Shown here: positions 19,376 to 53,079 of the stretch, one piece after another
Position numbering within the stretch: the first letter of the stretch is position 1
Layout: the number at the start of each line of letters is the position of its first letter
IMG/VR virus record: IMGVR_UViG_3300046787_000804
Location: 1-57,432 of that record
Reading direction: 5' to 3' (one strand)
Length of the DNA stretch: 57,432 bases
Source of the DNA: a virus
Lineage: Duplodnaviria > Caudoviricetes
The notes under the pieces: model-generated
Databases searched by the model: none
Told to the model about the DNA's origin: nothing
What the model saw: the letters and a program-made list of their open reading frames with translations, nothing else
Made by a program: the position numbers and the translations under genes

Positions 19376-19692
19376 AGGCCCGCACCGAATGGCACTTCGG
19401 TGGCGGCGCTACGTACTGCGGGGCATGCGAGACGACCTGTCCTGAGTGTCCGTATCAGGTGAACTCACCGCAGACCGAAGAGGGCTGGCAGGCCCTCGCT
19501 GTGCTGGATGTCTGTTCATCCCAAGTGCGCGCAGTTCAGGGCGCAGTGCTGGGTATGGACTTCAACGCGTGGATGTCTGCCAGCCAGGCACTGGATGCAG
19601 AGCCCGCTGCCATGACCCATTTATTCCCTGCCATCGAGGCGGGCCTGACGCAAGCATTGAACAAACCCTCTCCGGACAACCCACATGGCTGA
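19363..19692 (+). CDS. -1 frameshift extension of the tail chaperone (gpGT-like)
   Basis: Heptamer AAAAAAC at 19363-19369; the -1 frame is open (KRLKARTEWHFGGGATYCGACETTCPECPYQVNSPQTEEGWQ...) to 19692. Confidence 0.75.
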   Translation, partial: KKRLKARTEWHFGGGATYCGACETTCPECPYQVNSPQTEEGWQALAVLDVCSSQVRAVQGAVLGMDFNAWMSASQALDAEPAAMTHLFPAIEAGLTQALNKPSPDNPHG

Positions 19693-22312
19693 ACGTAACC
19701 TATCGATTCGACTGGCTGTCATTGACGGCGGCAAAGTCAAAGCCGAACTGGCAGACGTAGGCGAAGCCGGAGAGCGATCGCTAAAAAAGATCGAGTCGGC
19801 ATCGCAGCCTGCCTCTGCTGGTCTGAACCTGCTGTCCAAGGCGGCCAACGATGCCTTCGTGCGCATGGAAGACGCCACATCCCGCCTTGGGATGTTGGGC
19901 AGTGTGCTCGGTCGTCTTGGCCCTGCCGGGATGATCGTGGGGGCATCCGTTGCTGTGCTCGGCTATGGCATGCATCAGCTGGTTGTTCCGGTTGCTGAGG
20001 TGGGCGAAGAGCTCAACAAGCTCTCCCAGAAAACCGCTGTTTCGGTCGAGGCCTTGTCGGCACTGTTGTATGCCTCCGAGCTGTCGGACGTGAGTGCCGA
20101 GAGTTTGACCAAGGCGCTCAAATTCCTCTCGACTGCCATGTTCGATGCCAAGGTCAAGGGTGGCGAAGGCAGTGCTGCGCTCAAAGCGTTCGGGGTGTCG
20201 GCGCTGGATGCGCAAGGGCAGATTCGTCCAACTGAGCAGGTGCTGCTGGACCTGGCGGAGAAATTCGCGGCCATGCCCGACAGCGCAGAAAAGGCAGCGC
20301 TGGCCGTCAAGCTGTTCGGCAAGAACGGACTGGACATGATCCCCATGCTCAACCAGGGGCGAGATGGGCTGAACGAGATGATGGAAGAGGCCAAGCGCCT
20401 CGGGCTGGTCATGTCCGCCGATGCAGCGCGTGCTGCAGAGGAGTTCAATGACAACATGAAGCGTCTGCACGCGGTCAACGAAGGCGTGCAGCGCCAAATC
20501 GGATCCGCGTTGCTGCCGATCCTGGCCGATTTGACGGAGCAGATGTTTCTGGCCAAAACCGATGCCGGTGGTTTCACAAGCGAGTTGCAAGCCATCACGC
20601 ACAACCGGCAACAGGTTCTGTCCTTTCTCGAGGAGGTCGCGACAGGGCTGGGATTCATTGCCGAGTCGGCAGTGCTTGCCAAGCGTGTGATCAGTCAGCC
20701 GTTTGATAGTCTGCAGGTGGTCGCCAAGGACGTGGAGACCTGGATCAAGACGGACATGCTGCGCTCCATGAAGTCCATGGGATATGACGAGACGCAGATC
20801 AATGCCGAAATCGCCAAGTTGCAGGCGGCGCGCGATCGGTTTGTCGAGGCGGCCAACGACCGTTTGACGCATCTGACGGATAACCCCGGCTACGTCAACA
20901 AGATCGAAAAGTTCTTCGATGAGCAACGTCGTACGGTGCGCGTCATGGGGCAGAAATTTGTCCTGGAAACAGCAGAGCAAGCTGCACAGGTTCAGAAGAT
21001 CTATGACGAGTTCTTGCCCAAGATGCCTCGCAAACGACCCAGTGGGTTAGATCTGTCTGGCTTTGAAAAGAACAACGAAGGCTTGCAATTCCTGAAGCAG
21101 TTGGAGCAGCGTGCGTTGCGCGTGACCCAAGGCGAAGGTGCTGAGTTGCGCGCACGGGCTTTGGAGCTGGAACGCAAGGGCTATGCAGGTGTTGTCAAGG
21201 AAGCAGAGAAGTACATCGAAGCCATCGAGCGGATGGAAAAGCAGAAGGAAGCTGACAAGAAGTTTGAAGAATACGAGAAGGAGCTGCAAAAGGTCCATCA
21301 GATCACCGAGAACTACATCGGCAACAACCGCCTAAAGCAGGAAGAGTTGCAGTTGAAGCGCCAGCTTATGGATGTCGGCGAAGCCGAGCGCGCAGCTTTG
21401 CAGACCCGCTTCGAAATGGAAAAGGCGGCTGTCATGGCGTTGCGCCAGGCCGAGCAAATCAACGACCCTGGCCTCAAAGCCGAGGCTATCGCTGCGATCA
21501 ACGATGCTTTGGCGCGGCAGTTGCCGATCGTTGAAGAGCTTGCTCGGGCCAATGTGGAATATCAACGCAGCTTTGACTATGGCCTTCGCAGTTCCCTGCG
21601 CACCTACATCGAGGACGCGACCAATGCGGCCAAGCAGGCTGAACGTGCCGTAACCGGTGCCTTCAAGGGCATGGAAGACGCAATGGTTCAGTTTGTGACG
21701 ACCGGCAAGGTGGACTTCAACAGCCTAGCCAACTCGATCATTGCGGACCTGGTTCGCATCCAGATCCAAAAAATGATCACCTTGCCTTTGGCTGGGTGGA
21801 TTAGCGGACTGAACCTGTTTGGAGGTTCAGGAGGCAACGGATTGGGCGGAGCATTCCCAGCTGGAGCTACGGACCTGATGTCAGGCGGCACGATGGTGGC
21901 GCACACCGGTGGCCTGATTGGCAGCGATGTGCTGGCTACACGCGCTGTCGGACTGCAGCACTTCGATGGCGCTCAGCGGTTTCATACCGGAGGCTTGGTG
22001 GCGGGTGAGGTGCCCATCATCGCGCAGCCGGGTGAGGCGGTTTTCACGCAGGGGCAGTTGCGTGCACTCGGTGGCGCTTTGGCAAAAAACAATCCGTCGC
22101 CGGTCAAGGTGCTGGTGAATGTGACCAACCATGCCCCGGGCGTCGATGCGAGAGTTCAAACCACTCAGCAACCCGACGGTAGCACTCGGCTGGATGTGAT
22201 CGTCGAGCAGATTGAGGCGCGCATGAATCGTTCTATCAACCAAGGTGTGGGTATTGCCCCCACGCTTGAGCGTCGCTATGGGCTCAATCCAGCGGTAGGA
22301 GCTTTGCGATGA
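19685..22312 (+). CDS. Tail tape measure protein, lambda-type C-terminus
   Basis: 875 aa helical Ala/Glu/Leu-rich; FVTTGKVDFNSLANSIIADL and HTGG motifs. Confidence 0.9.
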   Translation: MAERNLSIRLAVIDGGKVKAELADVGEAGERSLKKIESASQPASAGLNLLSKAANDAFVRMEDATSRLGMLGSVLGRLGPAGMIVGASVAVLGYGMHQLVVPVAEVGEELNKLSQKTAVSVEALSALLYASELSDVSAESLTKALKFLSTAMFDAKVKGGEGSAALKAFGVSALDAQGQIRPTEQVLLDLAEKFAAMPDSAEKAALAVKLFGKNGLDMIPMLNQGRDGLNEMMEEAKRLGLVMSADAARAAEEFNDNMKRLHAVNEGVQRQIGSALLPILADLTEQMFLAKTDAGGFTSELQAITHNRQQVLSFLEEVATGLGFIAESAVLAKRVISQPFDSLQVVAKDVETWIKTDMLRSMKSMGYDETQINAEIAKLQAARDRFVEAANDRLTHLTDNPGYVNKIEKFFDEQRRTVRVMGQKFVLETAEQAAQVQKIYDEFLPKMPRKRPSGLDLSGFEKNNEGLQFLKQLEQRALRVTQGEGAELRARALELERKGYAGVVKEAEKYIEAIERMEKQKEADKKFEEYEKELQKVHQITENYIGNNRLKQEELQLKRQLMDVGEAERAALQTRFEMEKAAVMALRQAEQINDPGLKAEAIAAINDALARQLPIVEELARANVEYQRSFDYGLRSSLRTYIEDATNAAKQAERAVTGAFKGMEDAMVQFVTTGKVDFNSLANSIIADLVRIQIQKMITLPLAGWISGLNLFGGSGGNGLGGAFPAGATDLMSGGTMVAHTGGLIGSDVLATRAVGLQHFDGAQRFHTGGLVAGEVPIIAQPGEAVFTQGQLRALGGALAKNNPSPVKVLVNVTNHAPGVDARVQTTQQPDGSTRLDVIVEQIEARMNRSINQGVGIAPTLERRYGLNPAVGALR

Positions 22313-22809
22313 GTGATGTGACCTTGCCTGCTGGCATCCCTGTTTGGCCGGACACCTTGCCGCTGCCGCGCATCGAGGGCTATGGGCTGGCCCCGCAATC
22401 GAATGCGGTGCGAACGGACATCGATGCCGGAGCGGCTCGGATGCGCTTGCGCTCCACGAGCACGCTTTATCGGGTGCGCGCGGAGTGGCGTTTCTCGCAG
22501 GAGGCGTTTGCTGTTTTTGATGCCTGGTGGATGCATATCCTCAACCAAGGCGTTCTCTGGTTTGCGATGCCCTTGGCGGGTGGCTTGGGTGTTCAGGCGG
22601 TGCAGTCCCGATTCATCGCACCGTGGGACACCGAGCTGTTGCCCGGCAGCCGATGGCAAGTCAAAGCGCAATTGGAAGTGCAGGAATTTCCACGGCTCAC
22701 TGCCGATGAGACCCAAGTTGCTGCGGTGCTGGGGCCGGATGCCATTGCGCTGGGTCAACGCCTGCACACCTGGCTCAACCAATCCATGGCTGCCGCTGAT
22801 TACTGGTAG
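22309..22809 (+). CDS. Distal tail/minor tail protein
   Basis: WPDTLPLP..GY...RTDIDAG.ARMR...WF; immediately after the tape measure gene. Confidence 0.7.
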   Translation: MSDVTLPAGIPVWPDTLPLPRIEGYGLAPQSNAVRTDIDAGAARMRLRSTSTLYRVRAEWRFSQEAFAVFDAWWMHILNQGVLWFAMPLAGGLGVQAVQSRFIAPWDTELLPGSRWQVKAQLEVQEFPRLTADETQVAAVLGPDAIALGQRLHTWLNQSMAAADYW

Positions 22810-22830: not shown

Positions 22831-25496
22831 ATGACCCTCAAGACCCGGCTGGATGAAGCTGTGGGAACGATCGAGGGGGATGCCCAACTGCTCCATGAGA
22901 TCGTCCACGGGGATGATCAGACGACCGTAACCACGGAAGGTGGCCAGGTCAAGAGCGTGGCCAACGTCATTCATGGGGTTCAAACCCAACTTGATGCGTC
23001 CCGCCAAGAACTGACCAATCAGGTGGCCACGGCCACTCAACTAGCGAGCAATGCTGCGCAATCAGCCAGCAGTGCATCGACATCGGCCACGACAGCCAGC
23101 ACCAAGGCTAGTGCGGCCAGTGATTCTGCAACCAGTGCGGCAAGTTCCGCGACGACTGCGGCGACTTCGGCAACCACTGCCAGTACCAAGGCCAGTGATG
23201 CCAGCAGCAGCAAAACGGCGGCGGCCACCTCGGCAACCAATGCGGCCACCAGTGCCACCAATGCAGCGAGCTCGGCAACAGCGGCGGCAGCTTCGTCCAC
23301 CACCGCGACGCAAAAGGCCAGCGATGCGGCTAACAGTGCCAGTTCGGCGGCAGCCTCCGCCACCACGGCCAGCAGCAAGGCAACCGATGCACAGACCGCT
23401 TTAGCATCTGCGCAGTCCCAGGCTTCATTGGCTTCCGACTGGGCGCAGAAAACCGCTGCAACGGTCGACGGCACCGGGTATTCGGCGAAGTATTGGGCGG
23501 ACCGGGCGGCCAATTCGGCGGCAGTGGTCACCACCAATACGGTGATTCCGGCAGATGTGTTTGCTGGGGATAGCGTCAAGACGGATTTCACCCTCAGCCA
23601 TCCCGTGGCTTATCCGGGTGCTGTGTTGGTGACTGTGGCCGGAGTTCCTCAAGCACCAATAGATTCGTACTCGGTCCCCGCCATTACAACCCTGCGCTTT
23701 GTGTCCGCACCGGCGACAGGTGTGGGCATCAGTGTTCGATATCTCGACAAGGAAGCTCAATCTGGCGCAGCGTCTGCACAGGAGTGGGCCACCAAAACCG
23801 GCGGTGTGGTCTCCGGCTCGACGGAGTATTCGGCCAAGTACCACGCCCAGGCAGCTGCTGCGAGTGCCACTTCGGCATCGTCGTCTGCGACGGCGGCATC
23901 TGGTAGTGCGACATCGGCTGCAGGATCTGCAACCACGGCTGCGACCAAGGCTGCCGATGCAGGGACATCGGCCACCAATGCGGCAACTTCAGCAACCACA
24001 GCCAGCACCAAAGCCAGCGAAGCTGCGACATCGGCGACCAATGCTGCGAACAGTGCCAGCGGTGCATCTGCCTCTGCAACAACAGCAACGGCTAAGGCCA
24101 CCAATGCAAACAGCAGCGCAACAGCTGCAGCAAGTTCGGCCAGCAGTGCATCTGGTAGTGCCATTCTGGCGCAGGATTGGGCGACCAAAACGACAGCCCC
24201 GCCCAGTCGATCTCTGCTTCAGCATCAACCGCCACGCAAAAGGCAACGGATGCGGCGGCCAGTGCGACGGCTGCGGCTGGTTCAGCAAGTACCGCCTCGA
24301 CCAAAGCCTCGGATGCCGCAACGTCGGCGACCAATGCAGCGACTTCTGCCAGTACCGCCAGTACGCAGGCGACTGCAGCGGCAACCTCAGCCACGAATGC
24401 GGCGAGCTCCGCTACTGCAGCGGCAGGTTCGGCCACCACCGCAAGTGGCAAAGCGACGGACGCAGCCAACAGTGCCACGGCGGCAGCAACCTCGGCCAGC
24501 AACGCGAGCACGAGTGCCGCCAACGCGGCAACTTCGGCAGCTGGGTCAGCCACAACGGCAACGACTAAAGCTGGGGATGCAACGGCGAGTGCTACTGCAG
24601 CGGCCAATTCGGCGACTGCGGCGGCAGGCAGTGCCACAAGCGCAGCAGGGTCGTTGACGGCATCACAGGCGCAAGCCGCTCTGGCTTCTGATTGGGCACA
24701 AAAGACCACCGGTACGGTCGACGGCAGCGGTTACTCAGCCAAATACTGGGCAGGGCAAGCGGCAGGATCGGCAGCAGCGGTGACGGCCAATACGGTCATT
24801 CCCGCCGATGTGTTCACCGGCGATGGCGTGAAGACGGATTTCACAATCAGTCGGCCAGTCGGTTATCCCGGTGCATTGATGGTGACAGTTGCCGGGGTGC
24901 CTCAAGCGCCCTTGGATGCCTACACCACACCAGCCACGACGACGCTCAGATTCAGCTCGGCTCCTACCAGTGGCGTCGTGATCAGCGTGCGCTACCTGGA
25001 CAAGGAAGCGCAGTCTGGCGCAGCCGCAGCCGAGGAATGGGCGAACAAGACGTCGGGACCTGTTTCTGGCTCGACCGAGTATTCGGCCAAGTACTACGCA
25101 CAGTCCATTGCCGCCAATGCGGCGACTGCCAGTCAGCAAGCAACCAGTGCTGCGAATTCGGCTACGGCGGCGGCTGGCAGTGCCACCGCATCGGCGAACT
25201 CTGCGACGGCTTCAGCAGCATCGGCCACCCAAGCGCAGAGCTACATGAGTCAGGCGCAGGGGTATGCCGCTGCAGCGGGTGGCTCTAACGTCGCTCCACA
25301 GACCTTTACCGGAAATGGTTCGGCTACTGACTTCAGTTTGAGCACTGCAGCGTCCAGCGTCCATAAATTGATCGTGACGGTCAACTACGTGGTGCAGGAC
25401 TCACTCGATGCCTACGTCCTGGTCAATTCCGGGGCGACTTTGCGATTCACATCGGCACCAACCGCCAGCGCGCGGATTGTGGTGCGTTACATCTAA
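22831..25496 (+). pseudogene. Long Ala/Ser/Thr-rich tail fibre-like gene split by a frameshift near 24200
   Basis: A/S/T repeats run in one frame to about 24200 and continue in another frame to 25496; the junction lacks the V.G..EYSAKYY segment present in the other repeat units. Confidence 0.75.
23437..25103 (+). repeat. Two 414-bp imperfect internal repeats in the fibre gene (23437-23850 and 24690-25103)
   Basis: Both encode DWAQKT..TVDG.GYSAKYWA...NTVIPADVF.GD.VKTDFT...VAGVPQAP...LRF.SAP...VRYLDKEAQSGAA.A.EWA.KT.G.VSGSTEYSAKY.AQ. Confidence 0.9.
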
Positions 25497-25508: not shown

Positions 25509-26063
25509 ATGGCGATTACGCGCATCCCCAAAGCGGGGCTGGATGATGCCTTGCAGAACGAAATCAATGGCAAGTTGGACAAGGTCGGTGGAACGATGAC
25601 GGGCTCCATCACGATGACCAATGGAGCCTTGTTCAAGAGCAGCGTCACAAGTGATGACGCTCGAAATACGGGCTACAAGATGGCCGACGGGCAGGACATC
25701 GGAGAGATGAATCGCTCGAGTCAGTACTACGACGATCGGGCCACCAATTGCAATGGATATCTGCCTAATGGCAACTGCGCCAGTAACGGGTACTGGAACC
25801 CCCCCAATGGCAACTGGTGGACCTGGGGCGTCAGTGGCGTGCCGACAGGAAACTGTGCCAACTGGGGCAGCTATGACGGTGCAGGCGGCACCTCTCAGGT
25901 CTTCAACGCGGTGTCGGTCGGATTCAACTACGACGGGTACTACGAAGCCGCCAATGAGATCGGTGGTTCTGAATACCACCGTTGGTACCGCAACTGCAAC
26001 TGTGGATCGTTCAACTGCCGCACCAATTGCAATTGCAACTGCGCTTGTTGCGGCTGCTGCTGA
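25509..26063 (+). CDS. Fibre-like protein with Asn-Cys-rich C-terminus (candidate substrate of the adjacent modifying enzymes)
   Basis: LDKVGGTMTGSI fibre-type motif; 13 Cys, 9 of them as Asn-Cys; ends NCNCGSFNCRTNCNCNCACCGCC; AGGAG RBS. Confidence 0.8.
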   Translation: MAITRIPKAGLDDALQNEINGKLDKVGGTMTGSITMTNGALFKSSVTSDDARNTGYKMADGQDIGEMNRSSQYYDDRATNCNGYLPNGNCASNGYWNPPNGNWWTWGVSGVPTGNCANWGSYDGAGGTSQVFNAVSVGFNYDGYYEAANEIGGSEYHRWYRNCNCGSFNCRTNCNCNCACCGCC

Positions 26064-26072
26064 GGAGACGCG

Positions 26073-26906
26073 ATGAAGGTCTATATCACCCGTCCCCCGG
26101 CCTATGCGAGCTCGCCAGATCACGTGGTTCGTGTCCTGGTCGATGCGCCAAAGCAACGCGTAGGCGTGGAGATGTGCATTGTTTTTTCACCCAACCCCAG
26201 CGAGCCAGTGTCAGATGATGAGAGTGTTGTGCAAAGCGGTGACAAGTTCTACAAGGTCATCGCTGCCAGCGAGTTTGACTATGAGCTGCTCAAAAGAAGT
26301 ACGGGGTGGGCGGATCGTCAAGCCTGGCATCTGACATTCCGTTGGGATGTCAGATCGTTCACTGATCCGATCCCGCTCTACACCTATTCCATGGCGACCA
26401 AGATGTCGGCTCCGGAATTGTCACGTACGACTTACCAAAACAATCTGTCAGTGGGCTTTGTGGTCCCGTTCTCGGACTCGGCCTTTGAAGACTGTGCTGT
26501 GACCGTGAACATCAACCCTGATGTGAACAAAGGCGATTGTGTGGTGCAGGGTGTCGACGCTTCGGAAATCGTACGTACCGATTATTCGGCGAGTGCCCAG
26601 GTACGGGAGTTGATCCTTTTGCCTGGTGTCCAGATATCAGCGCCAACGAGCTGTACACCTGACGGCCAGGTCAACGTCCAAGTGCAAGTGCTCGATGCGA
26701 ATGACATGCCTATTGAGCACGATGCTGAAATCTTTCTTGAGGCGGTCAATGGCTACCTTCCAAAGACCCGCATCAAAACAGTCAACGGCCAGGCAAGTGT
26801 CCCTTTCATGGCCTTGGGCCTTGTGGCAGGAGATTCAGCACGGGTCAAAGCCGGTTTCAAATACTTCAGTGGTGCTTCTGATGTCTCCATCCAGATCCAT
26901 GACTAA
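26073..26906 (+). CDS. Hypothetical protein with C-terminal Ig-like beta domain
   Basis: C-terminal VNVQVQVLDAND.P...GYLPKTRIKTVNGQASV...ARVKAGFKYFSG beta-strand pattern; GAGGAG RBS. Confidence 0.6.
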   Translation: MKVYITRPPAYASSPDHVVRVLVDAPKQRVGVEMCIVFSPNPSEPVSDDESVVQSGDKFYKVIAASEFDYELLKRSTGWADRQAWHLTFRWDVRSFTDPIPLYTYSMATKMSAPELSRTTYQNNLSVGFVVPFSDSAFEDCAVTVNINPDVNKGDCVVQGVDASEIVRTDYSASAQVRELILLPGVQISAPTSCTPDGQVNVQVQVLDANDMPIEHDAEIFLEAVNGYLPKTRIKTVNGQASVPFMALGLVAGDSARVKAGFKYFSGASDVSIQIHD

Positions 26907-27507
26907 GGAGCTGTTTGGAGCAAGGGTATATGCGGGTCTCCATCCATTTCCAGATGACGTGATGCTGGAGATGCGCAAACGGGCGCTGGCCATACACCAG
27001 AGCATTAATCCTCATGGCATGCCATGGTCTCGATGCACACGGGAGAGTTTGCATGTCGCCGAACCATTTCAGCAGGTTTCGGAATTGATCGAGCAGGTGG
27101 TCGAGACTGAGTACGGATGCAGTGTGAGCCACCTGACTGGACGAGAAGTGGTGATACAGAGCGGGCAATGCCTGCCGCTGCACTGTGAGGACACCGATCT
27201 GTCAGCGGTATTCGTGCTGAGTAATGAAGCCAGGGCGAATCCTGAGCGCAGTGATTACTCCGGCGCATTCGTTTTGGTCAATCCGAGTGGAGCGTTTGGA
27301 TTCAAGCGCCTGCCATGGGAGGGGCTGAGATCGGAGCTGATTTATCCGACAGCAGGAATGTTGTTGATTTTCCCGAGCTACCTGGCTCACCACACTCACC
27401 CCTACAACGCACAGGAGCCAGCGGTTGAGTTGCACTTTGAACTCAACGTGGTCGATAACCATGCCCATCAACGTTTACGACAACCCAGTTTCCCCCGAAC
27501 TCTGTGA
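26899..27507 (+). CDS. Putative 2OG-Fe(II) oxygenase
   Basis: LPLHCED..LSAVF, G.FVLVNP and PTAGMLLIFPSYLAHHTHPY double-stranded beta-helix motifs; start ATG 26899 overlaps the previous stop. Confidence 0.75.
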   Translation: MTKELFGARVYAGLHPFPDDVMLEMRKRALAIHQSINPHGMPWSRCTRESLHVAEPFQQVSELIEQVVETEYGCSVSHLTGREVVIQSGQCLPLHCEDTDLSAVFVLSNEARANPERSDYSGAFVLVNPSGAFGFKRLPWEGLRSELIYPTAGMLLIFPSYLAHHTHPYNAQEPAVELHFELNVVDNHAHQRLRQPSFPRTL

Positions 27508-28048
27508 AGCAACGCGAGCTTGGCTTTTGTCGCAAAGTCCCATCTTCGGGTGGCGCGCACATGCAAACGCACCCGGTGTTTTCTGGCATCGCAATTTCGT
27601 GTTACCTGGAACGCATCAACACCACTATGACGATATCGCTTGGAATTCTGAGCTGAGTTACGAGGCCTTTTGTGCCTTTGAGAGTCCCTTAGCGCGGGTT
27701 GCCGAGATCGTTCGCCAGCAGTTCTTTGATGGCGAGGCCTTCACTCGGATCTGGGCCAACTTTCAGTCATTTGGTGACGAGTCGGCATTTCACAGAGACT
27801 TCCCTGTTCAGTACGCACGGACTGCCCGTACAGCCGTTTGGTATCCAGTGATGAACTGGGAGAGGGATTGGGGTGGTGATTTCATCACCCTCTCCGATGA
27901 TGGAGAGGTCGATGCCTGCACATTGATTAAGCCCAATCGACTGGTGGTGTTTAACGGGACGCAAACGCATGCGGCTCGTCCGATTTCCCGCTACTGCAGC
28001 GAACTGCGCATTGCAGTTTCATTCGGATGTGAGGTGATCAATGCTTGA
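27461..28048 (+). CDS. 2OG-Fe(II) oxygenase, prolyl-hydroxylase-like
   Basis: HRD (HxD), WERDWGGDF, KPNRLVVFNG..THAARP...LRIAVSF (distal His and 2OG-binding Arg). Confidence 0.85.
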   Translation: MPINVYDNPVSPELCEATRAWLLSQSPIFGWRAHANAPGVFWHRNFVLPGTHQHHYDDIAWNSELSYEAFCAFESPLARVAEIVRQQFFDGEAFTRIWANFQSFGDESAFHRDFPVQYARTARTAVWYPVMNWERDWGGDFITLSDDGEVDACTLIKPNRLVVFNGTQTHAARPISRYCSELRIAVSFGCEVINA

Positions 28049-28706
28049 GCATCTATGGAGCACTCCGGTTCTTCATGAGCAATCGCCCTTCACCATGGGC
28101 CAGCTTGAGGAGTTAAAGAAATTCACCACTGAGCGATTTCGCAATCACAAAGCCCATCCGCCTCGGCATGCATTGCCTGATGTGCCCGTGAAGTTACGAA
28201 CCCAGCTGAATCTGTTCTTGCCTGATCATGAGATGCATGCTCCGGCAGTCTGGTTTGAATTCAAACGCTGGGTGGATAGAACCTACCGCGCCTATCTGAA
28301 TGAGGCCCATGGAGTTAGGAATGTGAATGAGCTTGAAGTGCTCGCTCGATGCATCCCTGTTTGCTACCAAAAGGGCATGCGTGCGCAGCCTCATTACCAC
28401 CACACGGGCGATCATGTGCTGTGTCTGTATTTGGATTGCGGCAACGACCGAATACCTCCTGAGGACCGTGATTGGACGGTCGGAGATGGTGAATTGCTTC
28501 TACAAGATCCCCGCCCCATGGCGGGGTTTCCTTTTTGGGAGAAGGTTCGCTACATCGAAACATTCCCCGGTCTGGTCGTATTGCACCCATCGCGGGTATG
28601 GCATGAGACCAACCCCTTCAATGCCCCAAGCGGTCAACGGACCTTATTGGTCGTGACCCTGCGTGTGGCGTCCCATAACTACACCGAGCTGTACACCCGG
28701 CTATGA
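28041..28706 (+). CDS. Putative 2OG-Fe(II) oxygenase (TIGR02466-like)
   Basis: LWSTPV N-terminus, PHYH, CLYLD, GELLLQDPRP, PGLVVLHPSRVWHETNP...R. Confidence 0.8.
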   Translation: MLEHLWSTPVLHEQSPFTMGQLEELKKFTTERFRNHKAHPPRHALPDVPVKLRTQLNLFLPDHEMHAPAVWFEFKRWVDRTYRAYLNEAHGVRNVNELEVLARCIPVCYQKGMRAQPHYHHTGDHVLCLYLDCGNDRIPPEDRDWTVGDGELLLQDPRPMAGFPFWEKVRYIETFPGLVVLHPSRVWHETNPFNAPSGQRTLLVVTLRVASHNYTELYTRL

Positions 28707-28718
28707 GCCGATTCGGAG

Positions 28719-28922
28719 ATGACGATGATTGAGAAAACCATAGACCTCGTTGATGACGAGCATGTTTTGTTCACTGTGACGGTAGTCGAAGGCGAGCGTA
28801 TCCGCTCCCGTCGTGAGTATCACTTGGCCAAGTTCGCCCACCAAGACGCCGAAGAGGTCTGCCGACAGGCTTGCCCCGAGGCTTTCGCACAAGAGCCGTC
28901 GGTTCAGAGTGGAGGCGTGTGA
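28719..28922 (+). CDS. Small hypothetical protein (67 aa)
   Basis: GGAG RBS; TGATG coupling to the radical SAM gene. Confidence 0.55.
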   Translation: MTMIEKTIDLVDDEHVLFTVTVVEGERIRSRREYHLAKFAHQDAEEVCRQACPEAFAQEPSVQSGGV

Positions 28923-30283
28923 TGGCCAAGTTCACATTGCTGGCACGCGATCGTGCCAATTCACCCATTACGCTGACCTACGATAACCAGACCAGTGAAC
29001 TGCTCGATGGGGATCTGATGCCTTGGCCTCTACCGTATGTGGAGAAAACCTGGTCTGTTGGCCACATTGAGGCGATCAGTCAGACGATCCCAGGGCGCAA
29101 AGAGAGTCCAAAAGTTCTGAAAATTCAGCTCGGGCTTTCGTGCAACTATTCGTGTGACTACTGCAGCCAGCGATTCGTTCCTCATGCTGAAGAAACAACG
29201 CAGGCAGATGTGCCGCAGTTCTTGCATCTGCTCGAATCAAGTCTTGAGAGGGCTCCAGAGCGCATTGAGTTCTGGGGTGGAGAGCCGCTGGTCTACATCA
29301 AGACCTTGCGTCCATTGGCCGAAGCCCTGCGACAGCGATACCCGGCTGCTTCGTTCAGCATCGTTACCAACGGCTCTTTACTCAACCCGGAGGTCAACAC
29401 CTGGCTTGATGTGATGGGATTTGGGGTAGGCGTTAGTCATGACGGACCAGGACAACCCGCTCGCGGCCCAGATCCGTTGAATGATGAGACGAGTCGCGAA
29501 GGAATCATGGATTTGTATCAACGACTTGCACCGAAGGGGCGCATTTCGTTCAATGCGATGGTCCATCGAACCAACACCAGCCGGGAAGAAATCGCAAAAT
29601 TCTTCCTGCAGCTGACTGGTGACCCATCGTTGTCAATCGGCGAAGGTGCTTTTGTTGATCCTTACGATGCTGGTGGCTTGGCCAATTCGATCCAGTCTGA
29701 TCAGGAGGCGTTTGCATTCCGACGTCAATCGCTTGATGAGATCCGTCGTGGTCGTATCGTTCATTTGGACGTGGCTCGATCCCGCATGCAGGAATGGGCG
29801 CGCAGTATCTTGGAGCGTCGTCCTGCCAGCGTATTGGGCCAAAAGTGCGGGATGGATACCGCGAATCAAGTCGCCGTCGACCTTATGGGTAATGTGCTCA
29901 CCTGTCAGAACGTGAGCGCGGTTTCTGTTGCACCCAATGGGCAATCACATCACATTGGCCATCTCTCCAATCTCAAAGCAGTAGCACTCAACACATCGAC
30001 ACACTGGTCAAAGCGTACTGAATGCCTGAATTGCCCAGTGCTTCAGGCTTGTAAGGGCGCTTGCATGTTCTTAGAGGGGCCGTTGTGGACAGCCGCCTGC
30101 GATAACGCGTACTCGGACCATGTGCCATTCTTTGTGGCCGCCATTGAACACCTAACCGGGTGTGCCGTTTATCGCATCGAAGGCGATTTGCCAGAGGATC
30201 GAGCTGACGTTTTTGGGCTGAAGTCGCAGGACCAAAGATCACCGCGACGCAAGTTCATCCCGATCGAGGTCTCAAATGCCTGA
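28922..30283 (+). CDS. Radical SAM enzyme with SPASM domain
   Basis: CNYSCDYC (CxxxCxxC), FWGGEPL, VTNGSLL, VSHDG; SPASM-type KCG...GNVLTC...IGHL...CLNCPVLQACKGAC...C. Confidence 0.92.
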   Translation: MAKFTLLARDRANSPITLTYDNQTSELLDGDLMPWPLPYVEKTWSVGHIEAISQTIPGRKESPKVLKIQLGLSCNYSCDYCSQRFVPHAEETTQADVPQFLHLLESSLERAPERIEFWGGEPLVYIKTLRPLAEALRQRYPAASFSIVTNGSLLNPEVNTWLDVMGFGVGVSHDGPGQPARGPDPLNDETSREGIMDLYQRLAPKGRISFNAMVHRTNTSREEIAKFFLQLTGDPSLSIGEGAFVDPYDAGGLANSIQSDQEAFAFRRQSLDEIRRGRIVHLDVARSRMQEWARSILERRPASVLGQKCGMDTANQVAVDLMGNVLTCQNVSAVSVAPNGQSHHIGHLSNLKAVALNTSTHWSKRTECLNCPVLQACKGACMFLEGPLWTAACDNAYSDHVPFFVAAIEHLTGCAVYRIEGDLPEDRADVFGLKSQDQRSPRRKFIPIEVSNA

Positions 30284-30818
30284 TGCAGCACTTTCTGAGG
30301 CGCTTCGGGAGGCTTATGCAAGCGCTCCATGCAACGTGATCATCCTGCATACCCTGGAGATCCGGCATCCGGACTTCAGGGACGACGCGGGTAACTCGAC
30401 GGCGATCCGGGTGGTGCGTGATCAGCAAGACTTACTTGCGAGGCTTGAGGCATCAGCCCCAATCAATGCGGGCCAGCAAGTCCAGTTCGTGGCTATGGGC
30501 TTTGAGCTGGATCTGCCGCCGGTGGATATCGCGCCGGTTCCCGAAATCGCGATCACTCTGGATAACGTCACCCGAGAGATCGTGAAGCATTTGGACGAGG
30601 CTTCGGTTTCCGAGTCGCCCATTGAAGTGACCTACCGTCCGTACCTATCTAACGATTTAACCGGACCACAGATGGATTCGCCCATCACGTTGGTGATCAC
30701 CGAAGTGGAGGCCGACGTGCAGAGGGTGACGGCCAAGGCGCGGATGGCGGACATTGGCAACAAGACATTCCCGTCACGCCTGTACACCGCAACCGAATTT
30801 CCAGGATTGGCCCGATGA
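30276..30818 (+). CDS. DUF1833-like minor tail protein
   Basis: EAYASAP...LHTLEIRHP...IAITLDNV...YRPYLS...FPGL signature. Confidence 0.8.
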   Translation: MPDAALSEALREAYASAPCNVIILHTLEIRHPDFRDDAGNSTAIRVVRDQQDLLARLEASAPINAGQQVQFVAMGFELDLPPVDIAPVPEIAITLDNVTREIVKHLDEASVSESPIEVTYRPYLSNDLTGPQMDSPITLVITEVEADVQRVTAKARMADIGNKTFPSRLYTATEFPGLAR

Positions 30819-31237
30819 CAGTTGAAGATTCACCGAGTTGGGCGATCCAGTACATCGGTCGTCCGTGGATTGCAGGTGAGAGAGGCCCCGAGTCATTTGA
30901 CTGCTGGGGCCTTTTTCTTTGGGTCCAGAAGGTGCACTTCGGTCGTGATCTGCCGATGATTCCTGTCGACGCACTGAATCTGCGCACGGTCCTCCACACA
31001 TTCAAAAGCCACCCGGAGAGACAACGCTGGGCGGCAGTTGAAGTGCCCAAGCAAGGCGATGCAGTGCTGATGCGTCAGTCACGATACCCCGTACATGTGG
31101 GCGTTTGGATCGATGCGGACGGCGGTGGTGTCTTGCACTGTGCCCAGCAAATTGGGGTGGTGTTTCAGCAATTGAGCTCTCTGGCTAGTCACGGCTGGCA
31201 GGTGGAGGGGTATTACCGATGGAAGGAATTGCCATGA
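30815..31237 (+). CDS. NlpC/P60 tail assembly protein (gpK-like)
   Basis: YIGRPW..G.RGPESFDCWGL and HVGVW..VLH motifs. Confidence 0.85.
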   Translation: MTVEDSPSWAIQYIGRPWIAGERGPESFDCWGLFLWVQKVHFGRDLPMIPVDALNLRTVLHTFKSHPERQRWAAVEVPKQGDAVLMRQSRYPVHVGVWIDADGGGVLHCAQQIGVVFQQLSSLASHGWQVEGYYRWKELP

Positions 31238-33528
31238 CAAGCGTTTGCATGTCAGGCCTACCCAGTCCTGGACTGGTCATTTGGATGCGAAATCCGTTCG
31301 AGCCCAGTGATCGGCAGGTAAGCCATGTGTTTGGTTCGCCCACGATCGCTCAATGGATGAGTCGTGATGGCATCGAGCTCGATCAGCCCACCTTGATCCT
31401 CAAAAACGGCCAGCCGGTGCTGATGGCCCATAGGGCTGTGACGCCAATCGATGCGGGTGACGTTGTTGCCTTGGTCACTCTACCGCAAGGTGGTGGAGGT
31501 GGGGGCAAGAACCCGCTGAGAACTGTGCTCATGATCGCCGTCCTGGTGGTTGCCAATGCATATGGCGGCGCTCTGGCTGCTTCGATGGGGTATTCAGGCA
31601 CGCTGGCCACGGCGGTGGCGTCCACTGCGATCGCAGTCACGGGTTCTGTTTTGGTCAATGCACTGGTGCCATTGCCAAATCAGTCTTTGCCTTCGGCATC
31701 GGCCAACACTACATCCCCCAGCCCGACTTACTCATTGCAGGCGCGCGGTAACTATGGACGTCTGTCGCAACCCGTGCCCGTGATTTATGGCCATCATTTG
31801 GTGTACCCGGACCTGGCCACCATGCCCTATACCGAGTATGAGAACAACGAGGAGTATCTTCATCAATTGCACGTCATTGGTGTGGGCCATTTTCAGTTTG
31901 AGGAGCTGTCCATCGATGACAGCCCGATCAGCTCGTTTGCCGAGGTGCAGGCACAGGTCATTGAGCCTGGCGGACAGAACACGTTGTTCAATCCCGATGT
32001 GGTCACTGCCCCAGAGGTGTCCGGACAGGAGTTGATTGCAGTCAGCGATGCCGGTTCTATTGTTGGCCCCTTTGCCCTGAACCCCGTGGGCACACAGATC
32101 AATCAGGTTGGTGTCGATGTGGTGATGCTGCGGGGCCTTTATTACGCCAATGACAGCGGTGCATTGGAGAGCCGGTCGGTGCAATGGCGCGTCGAAGTGC
32201 GAAGCATCAACGACGATGGAGATGCCACCTCGGGCTGGCTCCATGTGGCAGATGAAACCTTTTCAGCCGCCACGAATACCGCGCAACGCTTGTCGTTCAA
32301 GTATTCGGTGTCACCTGGGCGTTATGAGATTCGCCTGCAGCGTCTTGATGCGCGGGACACCAGCAACCGAGTCGGTCACGAGCTGCGCTGGGGGCAGGCC
32401 AAGGGCTATTTGGCAGGATCGAATTTGCCCACTGATCTGACCTACTTGGCACTCAGGATGCGTGCCACTGACAACTTGTCTCAGCGCTCCTCGCGGCTGG
32501 TCAATTGTCTGGTGACGCGCAAGCTCCCTATCTGGAATCCGAGCACTGGATGGTCTGCGCTGCAACCCACTCGCTCGATTGCGTGGGCCTTCGCGGATGC
32601 GGTCAAGTCCAGCTATGGCGCAGGGTTGCCTGACCGGCAATTGGACCTGGCGGCCTTAGCACGGTTGGATGCGGTGTGGTCGGCACGAGGGGACACCTTC
32701 AATGCCGTGTTCGATCAAAACCAGACGGTGTGGGACGCCTTGGGGCAGATTGCCAGGACGGGGCGTGCTGTGCCGTTCTTGCAAGGCGGGATTGTTCGTC
32801 TCGTTCGCGATGAGCCTAAGACCATCCCGGTGGCGCTTTTTTCTGCAAGAAACATCGTGCGCAACAGCTTGAAGATCCAGTACCTGATGCCAGGCGATGC
32901 CACGGCGGATGCAGTCACGATCGAATACGTCAACCCCAAGAGCTGGAAGCCTGATGAATTCACGGTGTCTTTGTCTGGATCTCAGGCTGCCAAGCCCGCG
33001 CGTGTGAGGTTGTTTGGCTGTACCGATAAGGCCCAGGGCGTTCGCGAGGGGAAATACATCGCAGCGGCCAATCGGTATCGCCGACGAATCGTGACCTTTC
33101 GCACTGAGCTGGAAGGTTTGATCCCGACCTATGGGGATCTGATTGCCCTGAGCCATGACATTCCCCGTTGGGGTGTGAGTGGTGAGGTCTTGAGCTGGGA
33201 CAGCCAGTCGAGAACAGTGCGGTGCTCTGAGCCGCTGGGTTGGCAGTCAGGAGCCGTTCACTACCTTGTTTTGCGAAAGCCAGATGGCTCGGTCTCCGAT
33301 GCCATCGAGGTCACGCCGGGCGCAACTGCCACCCACGCCATCCTGAAAACCCAACCCGGCTTTGAGCCACTGGTGGGTGCTGACCGAGAGCGAACGCACT
33401 TTGCTTTTGGTGTGGGCCAGTCCTGGTCCCAGTTGGCACGCGTCATGAGCGTCAAGCCCAGGGCTGAGCAGGTTGAACTGACTTGCGTGACCGAGAACGC
33501 GTTGGTGCATACCGCTGATCAATCCTGA
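31234..33528 (+). CDS. Host-specificity tail tip protein (TipJ-like, with gpI-like N-terminus)
   Basis: PQGGGGG, N..RL.QPVPVIYG, YLALRMRAT, GD.IALSHD motifs. Confidence 0.85.
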   Translation: MTSVCMSGLPSPGLVIWMRNPFEPSDRQVSHVFGSPTIAQWMSRDGIELDQPTLILKNGQPVLMAHRAVTPIDAGDVVALVTLPQGGGGGGKNPLRTVLMIAVLVVANAYGGALAASMGYSGTLATAVASTAIAVTGSVLVNALVPLPNQSLPSASANTTSPSPTYSLQARGNYGRLSQPVPVIYGHHLVYPDLATMPYTEYENNEEYLHQLHVIGVGHFQFEELSIDDSPISSFAEVQAQVIEPGGQNTLFNPDVVTAPEVSGQELIAVSDAGSIVGPFALNPVGTQINQVGVDVVMLRGLYYANDSGALESRSVQWRVEVRSINDDGDATSGWLHVADETFSAATNTAQRLSFKYSVSPGRYEIRLQRLDARDTSNRVGHELRWGQAKGYLAGSNLPTDLTYLALRMRATDNLSQRSSRLVNCLVTRKLPIWNPSTGWSALQPTRSIAWAFADAVKSSYGAGLPDRQLDLAALARLDAVWSARGDTFNAVFDQNQTVWDALGQIARTGRAVPFLQGGIVRLVRDEPKTIPVALFSARNIVRNSLKIQYLMPGDATADAVTIEYVNPKSWKPDEFTVSLSGSQAAKPARVRLFGCTDKAQGVREGKYIAAANRYRRRIVTFRTELEGLIPTYGDLIALSHDIPRWGVSGEVLSWDSQSRTVRCSEPLGWQSGAVHYLVLRKPDGSVSDAIEVTPGATATHAILKTQPGFEPLVGADRERTHFAFGVGQSWSQLARVMSVKPRAEQVELTCVTENALVHTADQS

Positions 33529-33595: not shown

Positions 33596-33979
33596 ATGCC
33601 AGAACCGACAAGTAGTGGGGTTGCCGGAGCAGCGGTGGCCTACAAGGCGCTGGGAGGGACGGCAGCCGCTGTCGCAAGCGGGGCCACTTTGGCAGCCGTG
33701 GTGGTCATGCTGATGACCCCGCCTCGAAATAAGCGGGAGTGGGCTGTGGGCTTGATCAGCACGGTGGTGTCCAGCATCGGTGGCGGTGCATTCACCGTCG
33801 AACACTTCGATCTGCATCACTGGGCGTTTTCAACCATGGGGCTGTGTGCCATGGGCGGATTGATCTTTGCCTGTGGTCTGCCGGGGTGGGCGATGGTGCG
33901 TTGGACCTTTGCCTTCATCGACAAGCGCCGGGATGACTCGCTGTATTCGGTGGCCAAAGATGTGAAGGAGCTGCTATGA
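33596..33979 (+). CDS. Putative holin
   Basis: Three hydrophobic segments and a charged C-terminus; precedes the endolysin. Confidence 0.7.
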   Translation: MPEPTSSGVAGAAVAYKALGGTAAAVASGATLAAVVVMLMTPPRNKREWAVGLISTVVSSIGGGAFTVEHFDLHHWAFSTMGLCAMGGLIFACGLPGWAMVRWTFAFIDKRRDDSLYSVAKDVKELL

Positions 33980-34440
33980 AGCCGATTGAGTTCATCGCAA
34001 TGATCGGATCTTCCGCGCAGGCTACAGCCAAGCGCACGGGCGTATTCGCCAGCATCACGATCGCGCAAGCGGCGCTGGAGTCAGGGTGGGGTGAGTCGGG
34101 TCTGGCCAAGGTGGGCAAGAACCTCTTTGGCATCAAGGCAGACAGCCGCTGGCGGGGGGAGACCTTGATTTTGCAGACCAAGGAATTCATCCGTGGCCAG
34201 TGGGTCGTGGTGCCTGCTAAGTGGCGCAAGTACGCAAGCTGGCAAGAAAGTATTGACGACCACGCTGCATTTCTTAAGCAGAACCCACGCTATCAGCCGT
34301 GCTTCCAATGCCTCAAGGCAGAGGCATTTGCACAAGCACTGGCCAAGGCCGGGTATGCCACTGATCCAGGCTATGCCGACAAGGTGATCGGTCTCATGAA
34401 CCAGCACAAGCTGCAAGCTTTGGACGGAGGTAAGCCATGA
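33976..34440 (+). CDS. Endolysin, GH73 glucosaminidase (FlgJ-like)
   Basis: AQAALESGWG, NLFGIKA, GYATDPGYA motifs. Confidence 0.9.
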   Translation: MKPIEFIAMIGSSAQATAKRTGVFASITIAQAALESGWGESGLAKVGKNLFGIKADSRWRGETLILQTKEFIRGQWVVVPAKWRKYASWQESIDDHAAFLKQNPRYQPCFQCLKAEAFAQALAKAGYATDPGYADKVIGLMNQHKLQALDGGKP

Positions 34441-37206: not shown

Positions 37207-37827
37207 ATGTCCACTATCGCCCATGACTATCAACTGCGTGCTTTGCTCAAGGCGCACTTGAGTACTCGCATTGACGCGAACGACAAACTGTTAGATGAGT
37301 TTGGTTTGGCATACGGTGCAGCGCGTGCAGACGTTGCCTTAGTAAACGGGCACTTGGAAGGCTTTGAGATCAAGGCAGGGCGTGACACCCTCAAGAGACT
37401 GCCGGCACAAGTTGAGGCCTACAACCAAGTTTTCGAATTTTCTTGGGTGGTGACCACGCAAAGTCACCTGCCTGGTGTCCGTGAGGTTGTGCCGAGAAAG
37501 TGGGGGCTGCTGGTGGCAAAGGCTGACGAGCAAGGTGGTCAACTCGTCCAAGTGCGACGTGCACAGAGGAATCCTAGGCGTAATACTGAGCATCTGGCGC
37601 GGCTGCTTTGGCGCGAAGAGGCGCTTGCTCAACTCGAGATACTCGGGATGAGCAAGGGACTAAAGTCAAAGCCAAAAATTGCGTTATTCTCGGCCCTGGC
37701 CGAGGCCATGACTCCGGATGCTCTGTCTAACTACGTTCGAGCGTGCCTCAAGTCAAGGGCAAACTGGCGACTTGATGCAGAACCACGTGTATGTGGTGAT
37801 TCGTTGCGTCCCTTCGCCAGTGCGTAG
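37207..37827 (+). CDS. sce7726-family protein (PD-(D/E)XK-like)
   Basis: E.G....RADVALVNG.LEGFEIK..RDTL.RL..Q..AY..VF signature. Confidence 0.8.
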   Translation: MSTIAHDYQLRALLKAHLSTRIDANDKLLDEFGLAYGAARADVALVNGHLEGFEIKAGRDTLKRLPAQVEAYNQVFEFSWVVTTQSHLPGVREVVPRKWGLLVAKADEQGGQLVQVRRAQRNPRRNTEHLARLLWREEALAQLEILGMSKGLKSKPKIALFSALAEAMTPDALSNYVRACLKSRANWRLDAEPRVCGDSLRPFASA

Positions 37828-38866: not shown

Positions 38867-38883
38867 CTCTCCATTTGTACTCT

Positions 38884-46260: not shown

Positions 46261-46469
46261 TCCACCCCCTCGTTGCCATCCACAGTCGTCTTGCTGATGC
46301 TGCTGGCGATCCACTGCTTCAGATCGCTCTGCCTGAAGCGCCATGTCCCTCCGAGCTTAAAGGCAGGGAGTTTGCCACTGGCGGTCAGACGATAGACCGT
46401 GCGTTTGCTTGCCTTCAGATAAGCAGCAACCTCATCAATCGTGAGGATCTCGTCCGGTTGGTCGCTCAT
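46257..46469 (-). CDS. Excisionase-type HTH regulator (resembles MADS1-like HTH)
   Basis: ILTIDEVAAYLKASKRTVYRL..GKLPAFKLGGTWRF; ATGA coupling to the helicase. Confidence 0.8.
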   Translation of the reverse strand: MSDQPDEILTIDEVAAYLKASKRTVYRLTASGKLPAFKLGGTWRFRQSDLKQWIASSISKTTVDGNEGVE

Positions 46470-46567
46470 CAGCCTTCCCATGTCATTTGCACCGATCTTG
46501 GTTCGTTCTATATCTTGTCATAATATTCTGAAATTGAGCAAGCTTGGGCAAACTTGGCATTAATTAG

Positions 46568-49933: not shown

Positions 49934-49936
49934 TCC

Positions 49937-50626: not shown

Positions 50627-50705
50627 CTGGGATATTTTCATCTTTGGGCTTCGATTGCCCGGCATGCCCTTGATGTGCCCCATGCTGTTTATGTACAAGG
50701 TTGCG

Positions 50706-50785
50706 GCGAAATTAGCGAAATTAGCGAAATTAGTGTGCTGACAAGCACTTACGACCGATTCATCTCCGCGAAATTAGCGAAAAAA
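50706..50785. repeat. GCGAAATTA iteron-like repeats
   Basis: Three tandem copies at 50706-50732, a fourth at 50768-50776 and a partial fifth. Confidence 0.75.
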
Positions 50786-50794
50786 TCCCCCGCC

Positions 50795-52192: not shown

Positions 52193-52196
52193 TCAT

Positions 52197-53078: not shown

Positions 53079-53079
53079 T

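Follow-up and report, generated by a model that had tools for sequence, protein, structure and literature searches.

The DNA analysed here (the window) is an entire IMG/VR virus record, IMGVR_UViG_3300046787_000804, a viral metagenomic contig of 57,432 bases with an estimated completeness of 70%. Judged by its gene families, the + strand carries a lambda-like late operon, within which seven co-oriented genes (25509–30283) are packed between a long tail fibre gene and a set of tail-tip genes. The seven encode NC184, a short distal fibre protein ending in an Asn-Cys repeat; p277, a partner protein with an immunoglobulin (Ig)-like domain; three 2-oxoglutarate (2OG)-Fe(II) oxygenases (ox1, ox2 and ox3); p67, a small accessory protein; and a radical S-adenosylmethionine (SAM) enzyme with a C-terminal SPASM domain, hereafter rSAM. 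As far as sequence can tell, the pairing of a repeat-tailed fibre with this enzyme recurs in hundreds of phages, and the cassette is probably a module that matures the tip of the fibre.

ATG is the chosen start of all seven genes (open reading frames, ORFs, were called by a simple rule). Neighbouring genes overlap by 8 nt (26899/26906), 47 nt (27461/27507), 8 nt (28041/28048), 1 nt (28922) and 8 nt (30276/30283), or are separated by 12 nt (25496/25509), 9 nt (26063/26073) and 12 nt (28706/28719). A first-pass annotation of the window had described seven co-oriented, tightly packed genes between the fibre gene and DUF1833-NlpC-TipJ, and both ORFs and junctions are as it claimed. It had also seen neither a separate promoter nor a terminator. 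The first part agrees with a simple scan of the + strand, which found no promoter-like site between 19 and 36 kb; the second stands except for one intragenic match, a GC-rich terminator-like hairpin with a T-run at 28509–28526. This hairpin, the sole one on the + strand between 19 and 36 kb, lies within the coding sequence of ox3 and overlaps the codons of the segment MAGFPFWEK. Terminator-like sites overall number 23, compared to 15.0 ± 4.1 in shuffled sequences. The G+C content of the cassette (0.538–0.542 over 26–30 kb) is lower than that of the flanks (0.57–0.63).

The long fibre gene immediately upstream is split across two frames (ORFs 22831–24657 and 24177–25496). Three closely related loci, L003, L004 and L007 (L numbers denote loci from the homology searches described below), share approximately 94–95% DNA identity with the fibre region of the window and have 43 extra bases; in L003 the gene is a single ORF of 867 amino acids (aa). 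Either the frame is truly shifted within the repetitive Ala/Ser/Thr stretch, or the assembly is at fault.

Table 1. Genes and features of the cassette and of the late operon that surrounds it.
Feature	Position	Strand	Basis or remark
Large terminase	10132–12072	+	Pfam/PHROG searches; then portal, head protease, major head protein, minor tail protein
Tape measure	19685–22312	+	PHROG tape-measure families
phrog_384 virion protein	22309–22809	+	
Long Ala/Ser/Thr-rich tail fibre gene	22831–25496	+	PHROG tail fibre families (for ORF 24177–25496)
NC184, 184 aa, distal fibre protein, proposed substrate	25509–26063	+	No Pfam/PHROG/NCBIfam family; homologues
Asn-Cys repeat NCNCGSFNCRTNCNCNCACCGCC, NC184 residues 162–184, proposed modification site	25992–26060	+	
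p277, 277 aa, conserved partner, C-terminal Ig-like domain	26073–26906	+	AlphaFold2 model, Foldseek
ox1, 2OG-Fe(II) oxygenase, PF13759 type	26899–27507	+	Internal ATG of ORF 26626–27507
ox2, 2OG-Fe(II) oxygenase, PF13640 / FlmC-like type	27461–28048	+	Internal ATG of ORF 27425–28048
ox3, 2OG-Fe(II) oxygenase, PF13759 type	28041–28706	+	Pfam, PHROG
p67, small accessory protein, 67 aa	28719–28922	+	No informative family
Radical SAM enzyme with C-terminal SPASM domain (rSAM), proposed fibre-tip maturase	28922–30283	+	Internal ATG of ORF 28871–30283
Flanking tail-tip genes DUF1833, NlpC/P60, J/TipJ-like (context, outside the cassette)	30276–33528	+	
J/TipJ-like tail protein	31219–33528	+	phrog_469, 1.5e-138
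Endolysin	33976–34440	+	

Proteins of the cassette

NC184 has no family in Pfam, PHROG or NCBIfam, and a tblastn search of 50,697 phage records returned no match, probably due to low-complexity masking. Ten residues of its tail (N162, C163, N164, C165, N173, C174, N175, C176, C178 and C181) are invariant in all 27 aligned homologues. The codons of the repeat, NCNCGSFNCRTNCNCNCACCGCC, are mixed (AAC and AAT, TGC and TGT); given this mixture of synonymous codons, we ruled out a slippage-prone DNA microsatellite. The NC184-type C-terminal domain is joined to differing fibre N-terminal parts (160–616 aa), and at one locus, L164, it is carried by a protein whose N-terminus is held in common with the long fibre of the window. 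PHROG tail fibre families are matched by seven of ten repeat-tailed representatives, and collagen repeats are present in two (L038, 3187–5247, 3.1e-51; L258, 283–2127, 5.5e-21), with long triple-helix repeats and a weak CBM_5_12 match. In sequence terms the repeat-tailed proteins are tail fibres, and NC184 belongs to a modular fibre family whose common feature is a C-terminal (x-Cys)n run, where x is mostly Asn.

The repeat appears to form the mature end of these fibres. The run ends exactly at the stop codon in 53 of 118 unique tails and no more than five residues from it in 107. At the x position Asn accounts for 80% (a share inflated by the filter used), Asp for 9% and Ala for 6%. A few proteins continue beyond the repeat. 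In gp028 of Achromobacter phage JWF (L001, 6844–8295) residues 297–308 form the repeat, which is fused in frame to a Hint domain (PF05203, 3e-12) such that its last Cys, residue 308, is also the first Hint residue; L226 (4208–5338) is alike. In L200 (12706–13347) the repeat (120–131) is followed after three residues by a Peptidase_S74 intramolecular-chaperone domain (PF13884, residues 134–190, 1.1e-06), and the ORF runs off the contig end. Hint and Peptidase_S74 modules cut themselves off. If they do so here, then the repeat would be the mature C-terminus of these proteins too. The AlphaFold2 monomer of NC184 has a predicted local distance difference test score (pLDDT) of 54.9, and of about 29 in the tail; the model was left out of the fold search.

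The rSAM protein matches phrog_1802 (3e-59) and scores 29.0 bits against the Pfam Radical_SAM model, just below the cut-off of 29.5. Its SPASM domain (TIGR04085, residues 309–383) scores 32.9 bits against a cut-off of 27. All 166 aligned family members have the three Cys of the CxxxCxxC motif (C74, C78 and C81), and 163–166 of them keep the seven Cys of the SPASM domain (C309, C328, C368, C371, C377, C381 and C393). By sequence, then, the protein has the features of a radical SAM/SPASM maturase: the CxxxCxxC motif, a seven-Cys SPASM domain and an adjacent gene for a candidate substrate. About 65 residues lie upstream of the radical SAM core. No model for a RiPP recognition element (RRE; RiPP, ribosomally synthesised and post-translationally modified peptide) or for PqqD was found on rSAM or p67 at E≤0.1 in Pfam, and no search aimed at RREs was made. 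Public annotations name the enzyme 'radical SAM domain-containing protein' or, in JWF, 'anaerobic sulfatase-maturating enzyme'. At six loci (L266, 5875–6894, and five similar ones) a second, shorter radical SAM protein (PF04055, 1.8e-08; homology cluster 8) is encoded between p277 and the SPASM enzyme.

Membership of several characterised families was considered and rejected. The best curated equivalog is PapB (NF047865, 1.5e-16), which aligns to residues 66–382 over profile positions 5–317 of 330, at 60.5 bits where the cut-off is 340; next in NCBIfam come a geopeptide maturase, a viperin model (matched in its core only) and QhpD. QhpD (TIGR03906, 7.1e-14) scores 51.3 bits against 453, with the match limited to the N-terminal core (residues 66–177). 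The anaerobic sulfatase maturase model (TIGR03942) scores 37.2 bits against 349.45; C/S-x-P-x-R is the sulfatase motif for these enzymes, and neither C-x-P-x-R nor S-x-P-x-R occurs in NC184. The prokaryotic viperin model of NCBIfam (6.3e-14) scores 51.8 bits against 180, and the PADLOC pVip match (3.8e-14) spans only residues 70–227; to our knowledge viperins have no SPASM domain. Among solved structures the nearest by sequence is 8vpo (3.9e-10), which is listed with a publication about RS-SPASM enzymes that act as cyclopropyl synthases in RiPPs.

The three oxygenases score slightly below the Pfam gathering threshold of 27 bits: ox1 at 25.3 (2.1e-05), ox2 at 26.9 (9.9e-06) and ox3 at 24.5 (3.6e-05). 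Both ox1 (3.8e-07) and ox3 (6.1e-08) match phrog_81, '2OG-Fe(II) oxygenase', and they fall in the same homology cluster. The second enzyme is of a different type; its PHROG match is phrog_274, 'DNA endonuclease V', a label at odds with its Pfam match to 2OG-FeII_Oxy_3, and it matches NCBIfam FlmC at 2.5e-12, below cut-off. The hallmark of 2OG-Fe(II) oxygenases is an H-x-D/E...H metal triad together with a 2OG-binding Arg. Invariant residues are R82, H95 and H164 in 83 of 83 ox1 sequences (the acidic residue beside H95 is not fixed), H111, D113, H170 and R183 in 31 of 31 ox2 sequences, and H118, H120, D124 and H188 in 38 of 38 ox3 sequences. On these alignments all three keep His, Asp or Arg residues expected at the metal and 2OG site. 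For p67 no family was found in Pfam, PHROG or PADLOC; NCBIfam gave a single weak match (0.021, 14.5 bits against 351) and the ESM Atlas no informative one.

No family was found for p277 in Pfam, PHROG or NCBIfam, and sequence searches of the PDB with p277 and NC184 gave nothing at E≤1. The AlphaFold2 model of p277 has a pLDDT of 94.9 and a predicted template modelling score (pTM) of 0.90. Foldseek comparison with the PDB places an Ig-like domain of the intimin/invasin kind in the C-terminal third, the PDB matches covering Ig-like domains only; the N-terminal two thirds have no PDB match, and in BFVD match uncharacterised phage proteins only. Searches of the ESM Atlas yielded no more than Ig-like leads, below 0.9. 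Because Gly residues are the sole invariant ones across 36 homologues, p277 does not look like an enzyme. The picture drawn in the first-pass annotation needs correcting here: p277 is a conserved Ig-domain partner rather than an enzyme-like protein. It stands in the usual slot of fibre assembly factors, and we suggest, with some reserve, that it is probably a non-enzymatic partner of the fibre. A complex prediction for p277 and NC184 residues 60–184 scored 0.01 against a mark of 0.32; it was run without controls and bears neither way on binding.

Co-occurrence of the enzyme and the repeat

Two sets of loci were assembled, one seeded with the enzyme and the other with the repeat. In the first, 402 of 405 candidate stretches from IMG/VR and 130 of 155 from species-representative genomes were confirmed as rSAM relatives, and 80 loci were kept per source. 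The repeat was defined as four or more consecutive x-Cys units, with at least two Asn, in a same-strand ORF within 6 kb upstream of the enzyme, and loci with at least 3 kb of upstream sequence were counted. Such an ORF is present at 54 of 56 viral loci and 49 of 54 genomic loci; elsewhere in the 162 loci repeats of this kind occur only three times. Among the seven exceptions, L036, L246, L254 and L264 have tails of three units, L042 is cut at a contig end, L238 is a degraded locus and L274 has a non-tail context. In L274 (2563–8323, from a Sulfuritalea metagenome-assembled genome) a 43%-identical rSAM lies beside ORFs that by eye are ABC transporter-like and HlyD-like, with no tail genes and no precursor found at the locus. 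The locus may be a RiPP cluster of bacteria with kinship to the phage enzymes.

The second set was seeded with a DNA pattern for NCNCNCNC, which gave at least 120 IMG/VR stretches. A match was taken as gene-like if the repeat fell in an ORF with 50 or more upstream codons and lay no more than 20 codons from its stop. There are 70 of these among the matches listed, to which all counts for this set refer. An rSAM homologue is present in the locus of 57 of the 70 viral ORFs ending in NCNCNCNC, each time on the same strand, and 12 of the 13 repeat ORFs without one have less than 2.7 kb of downstream sequence. Beside the 50 other NCNCNCNC matches, which are non-genic or of low complexity, the enzyme occurs once. 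Clustering at 50% identity reduces the 70 repeat ORFs to 22 clusters, of which 19 adjoin rSAM. The prediction of the first-pass annotation that rSAM, oxygenases and Asn-Cys-rich fibre genes would co-occur at tail loci was thus borne out in both directions. Enzymes without the Cys-rich gene or outside tail loci, which that annotation had named in advance as contrary evidence, are confined to rare cases, L274 and L238. Where genome records name a host, it is in most cases one of the freshwater Burkholderiales (Limnohabitans, Polaromonas, Rhodoferax and Polynucleobacter); others are Alphaproteobacteria (Ferrovibrio, Methylobacterium and Rhizobium) and one Paraburkholderia.

The composition of the module was determined at the 151 loci where a repeat gene accompanies an rSAM with 35% identity or more. 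Between these two genes p277-like genes are present at 115 loci, ox1/ox3-type oxygenases at 99, ox2-type oxygenases at 22 and p67 at 14. The commonest layout, found at 56 of the 151, is repeat gene, p277, one oxygenase and rSAM, and at eight loci nothing lies between the repeat gene and rSAM. On the basis of these counts the minimal unit is the repeat protein plus rSAM, and the three oxygenases and p67 of the window represent an elaborated form. The cassette that had been described, rSAM with three oxygenases and a fibre protein, is accordingly present in the window and yet is not the typical layout. Other recurrent cassette genes (clusters 4, 5, 6, 7, 12, 13, 16 and 19) have no Pfam family. 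In an expanded variant (L036, L042 and L063) approximately 5 kb separates p277 from rSAM and holds at least five extra genes without a Pfam family; one of them is also found in Ralstonia phage RSP15 (ORF046). The ox2-type enzyme is confined to tails ending CCG.../CGC, where 12 of 21 tail/architecture combinations have it, compared to 0 of 59. This distribution hints at matching between enzyme and tail but is confounded by relatedness.

The tail genes next to the module differ from phage to phage. In the window it precedes DUF1833-NlpC-TipJ; in L029, a siphophage-type locus, it follows a J protein of 1167 aa; in the Achromobacter siphophage JWF it also follows J; and in the Ackermannviridae phage RSP15 it begins with ORF048, a 'side tail fiber' that ends NTNCQCGN, followed by a p277 homologue, ORF046 and rSAM. 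These four contexts suggest that the module is mobile among unrelated tail loci. A blastn search with the whole cassette gave a single match, 91 bases in RSP15. Viral contigs also encode small proteins of 67–79 aa ending ...HTHIFYDDYSTACNCNCNCNC(S/T)RG.. (L092, L100, L144, L160 and L186), and in four of the five (all except L160) a distant rSAM homologue (27–34% identity) is found on the same contig. These proteins look like classical RiPP precursors that share the repeat.

Proposed maturation of the fibre tip and its alternatives

We consider it probable, with ample room for doubt, that the module matures the fibre tip, rSAM installing Cys-Asn/Asp thioether cross-links in a presumably trimeric tip that is also hydroxylated. 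Under such a scheme NC184 would be the distal piece of the fibre, with (Asn-Cys)n at its extreme C-terminus. The enzyme would take the repeat as its substrate, bind Cys thiols at an auxiliary Fe-S cluster as in RiPP maturases, and abstract a hydrogen from a neighbouring Asn, Asp or Ala carbon, giving C-S thioether links within or between the three chains. One to three oxygenases would, as a looser suggestion, probably hydroxylate fibre residues, and p277 would act non-enzymatically, either as an assembly or presentation factor or as an accessory protein bound to the tip. This would yield, in the cytoplasm and ahead of virion release, a fibre tip that is stapled covalently and insensitive to redox conditions. 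A covalent staple would make sense for a protein that is folded in the reducing cytoplasm and used outside the cell.

Thioether links from Cys to Asn or Asp are the most likely product of rSAM on the repeat because the substrate is nearly all Cys plus Asn, Asp or Ala, because the best-scoring curated models are thioether-forming maturases of peptides or proteins (PapB, geopeptide and QhpD), and because NxxcB of streptococci offers a precedent. NxxcB is described as a SPASM-type radical SAM enzyme that links the sulfur of Cys to the Asn beta-carbon and tolerates Ala, Gln and Asp as acceptor (PMC9389541). The likeness concerns the described chemistry rather than sequence comparison with NxxcB: an (NC)n repeat holds nested N-x-x-C registers, and the alternate position is Asn, Asp or Ala. 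The difference is that the NxxcB substrate, NxxcA, is a short, secreted peptide that has a leader, whereas here the repeat is the C-terminus of a fibre protein of 160–686 aa. A narrower proposal, in which rSAM builds a Cys-to-Asn thioether ladder between the three fibre chains and so staples the receptor-binding tip, is possible, and we put it forward only tentatively.

Several observations weigh against maturation of the fibre tip. The modification itself is read from genes. The loci are non-independent, many are near-identical, and all were seeded from the protein of the window or from one motif. At L158 a 79-aa repeat ORF has 10 kb of downstream sequence without rSAM, in L274 the enzyme sits in a non-phage transporter context, and the RSP15 tail has only two units. 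Within the window there is a terminator-like hairpin inside ox3, and, compared to L003, L004 and L007, the long fibre gene has a frameshift, so that this copy may not yield a working fibre. The NC184 monomer is poorly modelled. Because all curated equivalogs score far below their cut-offs, the chemistry of rSAM is not readable from homology, and it is left open by the nearest solved relative, which forms C-C bonds rather than thioethers. Finally, radical SAM enzymes are oxygen-sensitive whereas 2OG oxygenases need O2, and their joint action needs explaining.

If the repeat were instead a metal-thiolate site, either metallothionein-like or a Cys counterpart of the His-x-His iron sites of T4, then Zn, Fe or Cu would hold the chains together with no covalent link, and the enzymes would act elsewhere or rSAM would only deliver the metal or cluster, or handle it. 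A strict period of two, with Cys in each alternate position, is what would be needed for ligands facing inward from an extended strand, C-x-C and C-C runs are typical of metal-thiolate proteins, and metal binding was among the purposes that the first-pass annotation had thought possible. This leaves unexplained why a SPASM enzyme adjoins 19 of 22 tail-protein clusters among the matches listed, and why eight of 151 loci consist of just the repeat gene and rSAM; the preference for Asn, Asp or Ala at the alternate position has no obvious metal-binding role, and no metallochaperone-like gene was seen. We regard a metal-held tip as unlikely.

The enzyme might also carry out other radical chemistry on the same repeat, such as conversion of Cys to formylglycine, C-C or C-O cross-linking, or epimerisation, with the oxygenases finishing an unusual oxidised structure. 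SPASM enzymes are chemically diverse. The JWF enzyme carries its sulfatase-maturase annotation, and the sulfatase-maturase model aligns from end to end with the rSAM of the window (residues 70–381, 1.8e-09); the nearest solved relative is a cyclopropyl synthase. Set against these are the sulfatase-maturase score, far under the cut-off, the absence of the sulfatase motif from NC184, and the composition of the substrate, nearly all Cys plus an acceptor-type residue, which suits thioether formers best. Chemistry of these other kinds seems to us improbable.

A different possibility is that the genes are cargo, or morons: enzymes acting on the host envelope, on nucleotides or on a diffusible peptide, or anti-defence or auxiliary metabolic genes lodged in the late operon. 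PHROG classes the phrog_81 oxygenases as 'moron, auxiliary metabolic gene and host takeover', the core of rSAM is viperin-like, the cassette is low in G+C compared to its flanks, and a related enzyme is found in the bacterial transporter context of L274. The viperin matches, however, are to generic core residues well below cut-off and viperins, so far as we are aware, lack the SPASM domain; the cassette has no promoter-like site of its own in the simple scan; and same-strand, two-way coupling across unrelated tail architectures is not expected of free-riding cargo. Taken together these points make cargo quite improbable. A released peptide, in which the repeat would be a RiPP core that is modified and then cleaved from a fibre protein serving as a large leader to give a free bioactive product, is very improbable: the 67–79-aa proteins ending ...YSTACNCNCNCNCSRGIL on contigs with a distant (27–34%) rSAM (L092, L100, L144 and L186) are in its favor, but in the fibre versions the repeat is, or becomes, the C-terminal end of a structural protein, and the 151-locus census found neither protease nor exporter in the conserved phage module.

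Related systems and the surrounding window

Maturation of the fibre tip by rSAM would have partial parallels in several known systems. PapB acts on C-x3-D/E motifs in a small peptide. Like rSAM, the ranthipeptide maturases that it represents combine radical SAM and SPASM domains and have a substrate rich in Cys; the difference is that the x-Cys repeats here are on a structural protein. QhpD, also of the SPASM radical SAM kind, introduces several Cys to Asp/Glu thioethers into the gamma subunit of quinohemoprotein amine dehydrogenase; it likewise acts on a protein subunit rather than on a natural-product peptide, albeit a periplasmic enzyme subunit and not a virion fibre. Fibre tips with an S74 intramolecular chaperone have a counterpart in L200, where the repeat is followed by S74, and in p277, which occupies the classical slot of assembly factors behind a fibre gene. 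Those tips fold and are cut without redox enzymes, whereas the module here includes rSAM and oxygenases; nor did Pfam, PHROG, PDB sequence or Foldseek searches show any likeness between p277 and known chaperones of fibres. The tip of the T4 long tail fibre is a trimeric, iron-binding needle with His-x-His ligands at a period of two, and the HK97 capsid is locked by covalent isopeptide cross-links between its subunits. In both a virion locks a multimeric structure, as proposed here, although neither is known to use a dedicated modifying enzyme and the residues and chemistry are others.

Full-text literature searches found no description of such a fibre-tip maturation module. The material available from two papers concerns, in one case, an unrelated cyanophage radical SAM enzyme (PMC12801897) and, in the other, the phages Lumi and JWF, with no mention of rSAM in that material (PMC9959647). 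The enzymes belong to known families; what appears not to have been described before is their dedication to a repeat at the tip of a fibre on the virion. If true, it would mean that phages apply RiPP-type radical chemistry to their own virions and not just to secreted peptides, a new class of post-translational modification in phage structural biology, and the SPASM field would gain a large family with a simple repeat substrate. Producing fibres of this kind, or exchanging them between phages, would then require the maturases too, a point relevant to work on host range and on recombinant receptor-binding proteins. Should the interchain thioether ladder in particular prove correct, it would be the first radical cross-link that an enzyme installs in a structural protein of a virus, made on a new repeat-type SPASM substrate, and it would occur widely in phages that infect freshwater Burkholderiales and Alphaproteobacteria. 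The locus is available in culture, in Achromobacter phage JWF and in several Limnohabitans isolates (L208, L219, L223, L229, L244 and L279).

Downstream of the cassette, DUF1833 matches PF08875 (6.7e-43) and the next gene NlpC/P60 (1.6e-07) in Pfam. The first-pass annotation had spoken of a prophage, a status not established because the window is a viral metagenomic contig. The right arm (37748–55547) holds accessory genes for a Beta_protein family member, a ResIII helicase fused to a TnsA-like endonuclease, an N6/N4 DNA methylase, a UvrD helicase with a PD-(D/E)XK nuclease, a Sacsin/NOV_C protein and two ParB/RepB-like proteins, together with a large serine recombinase (53973–55547). By its predicted functions this gene set suggests a temperate phage with a defence or anti-defence island.

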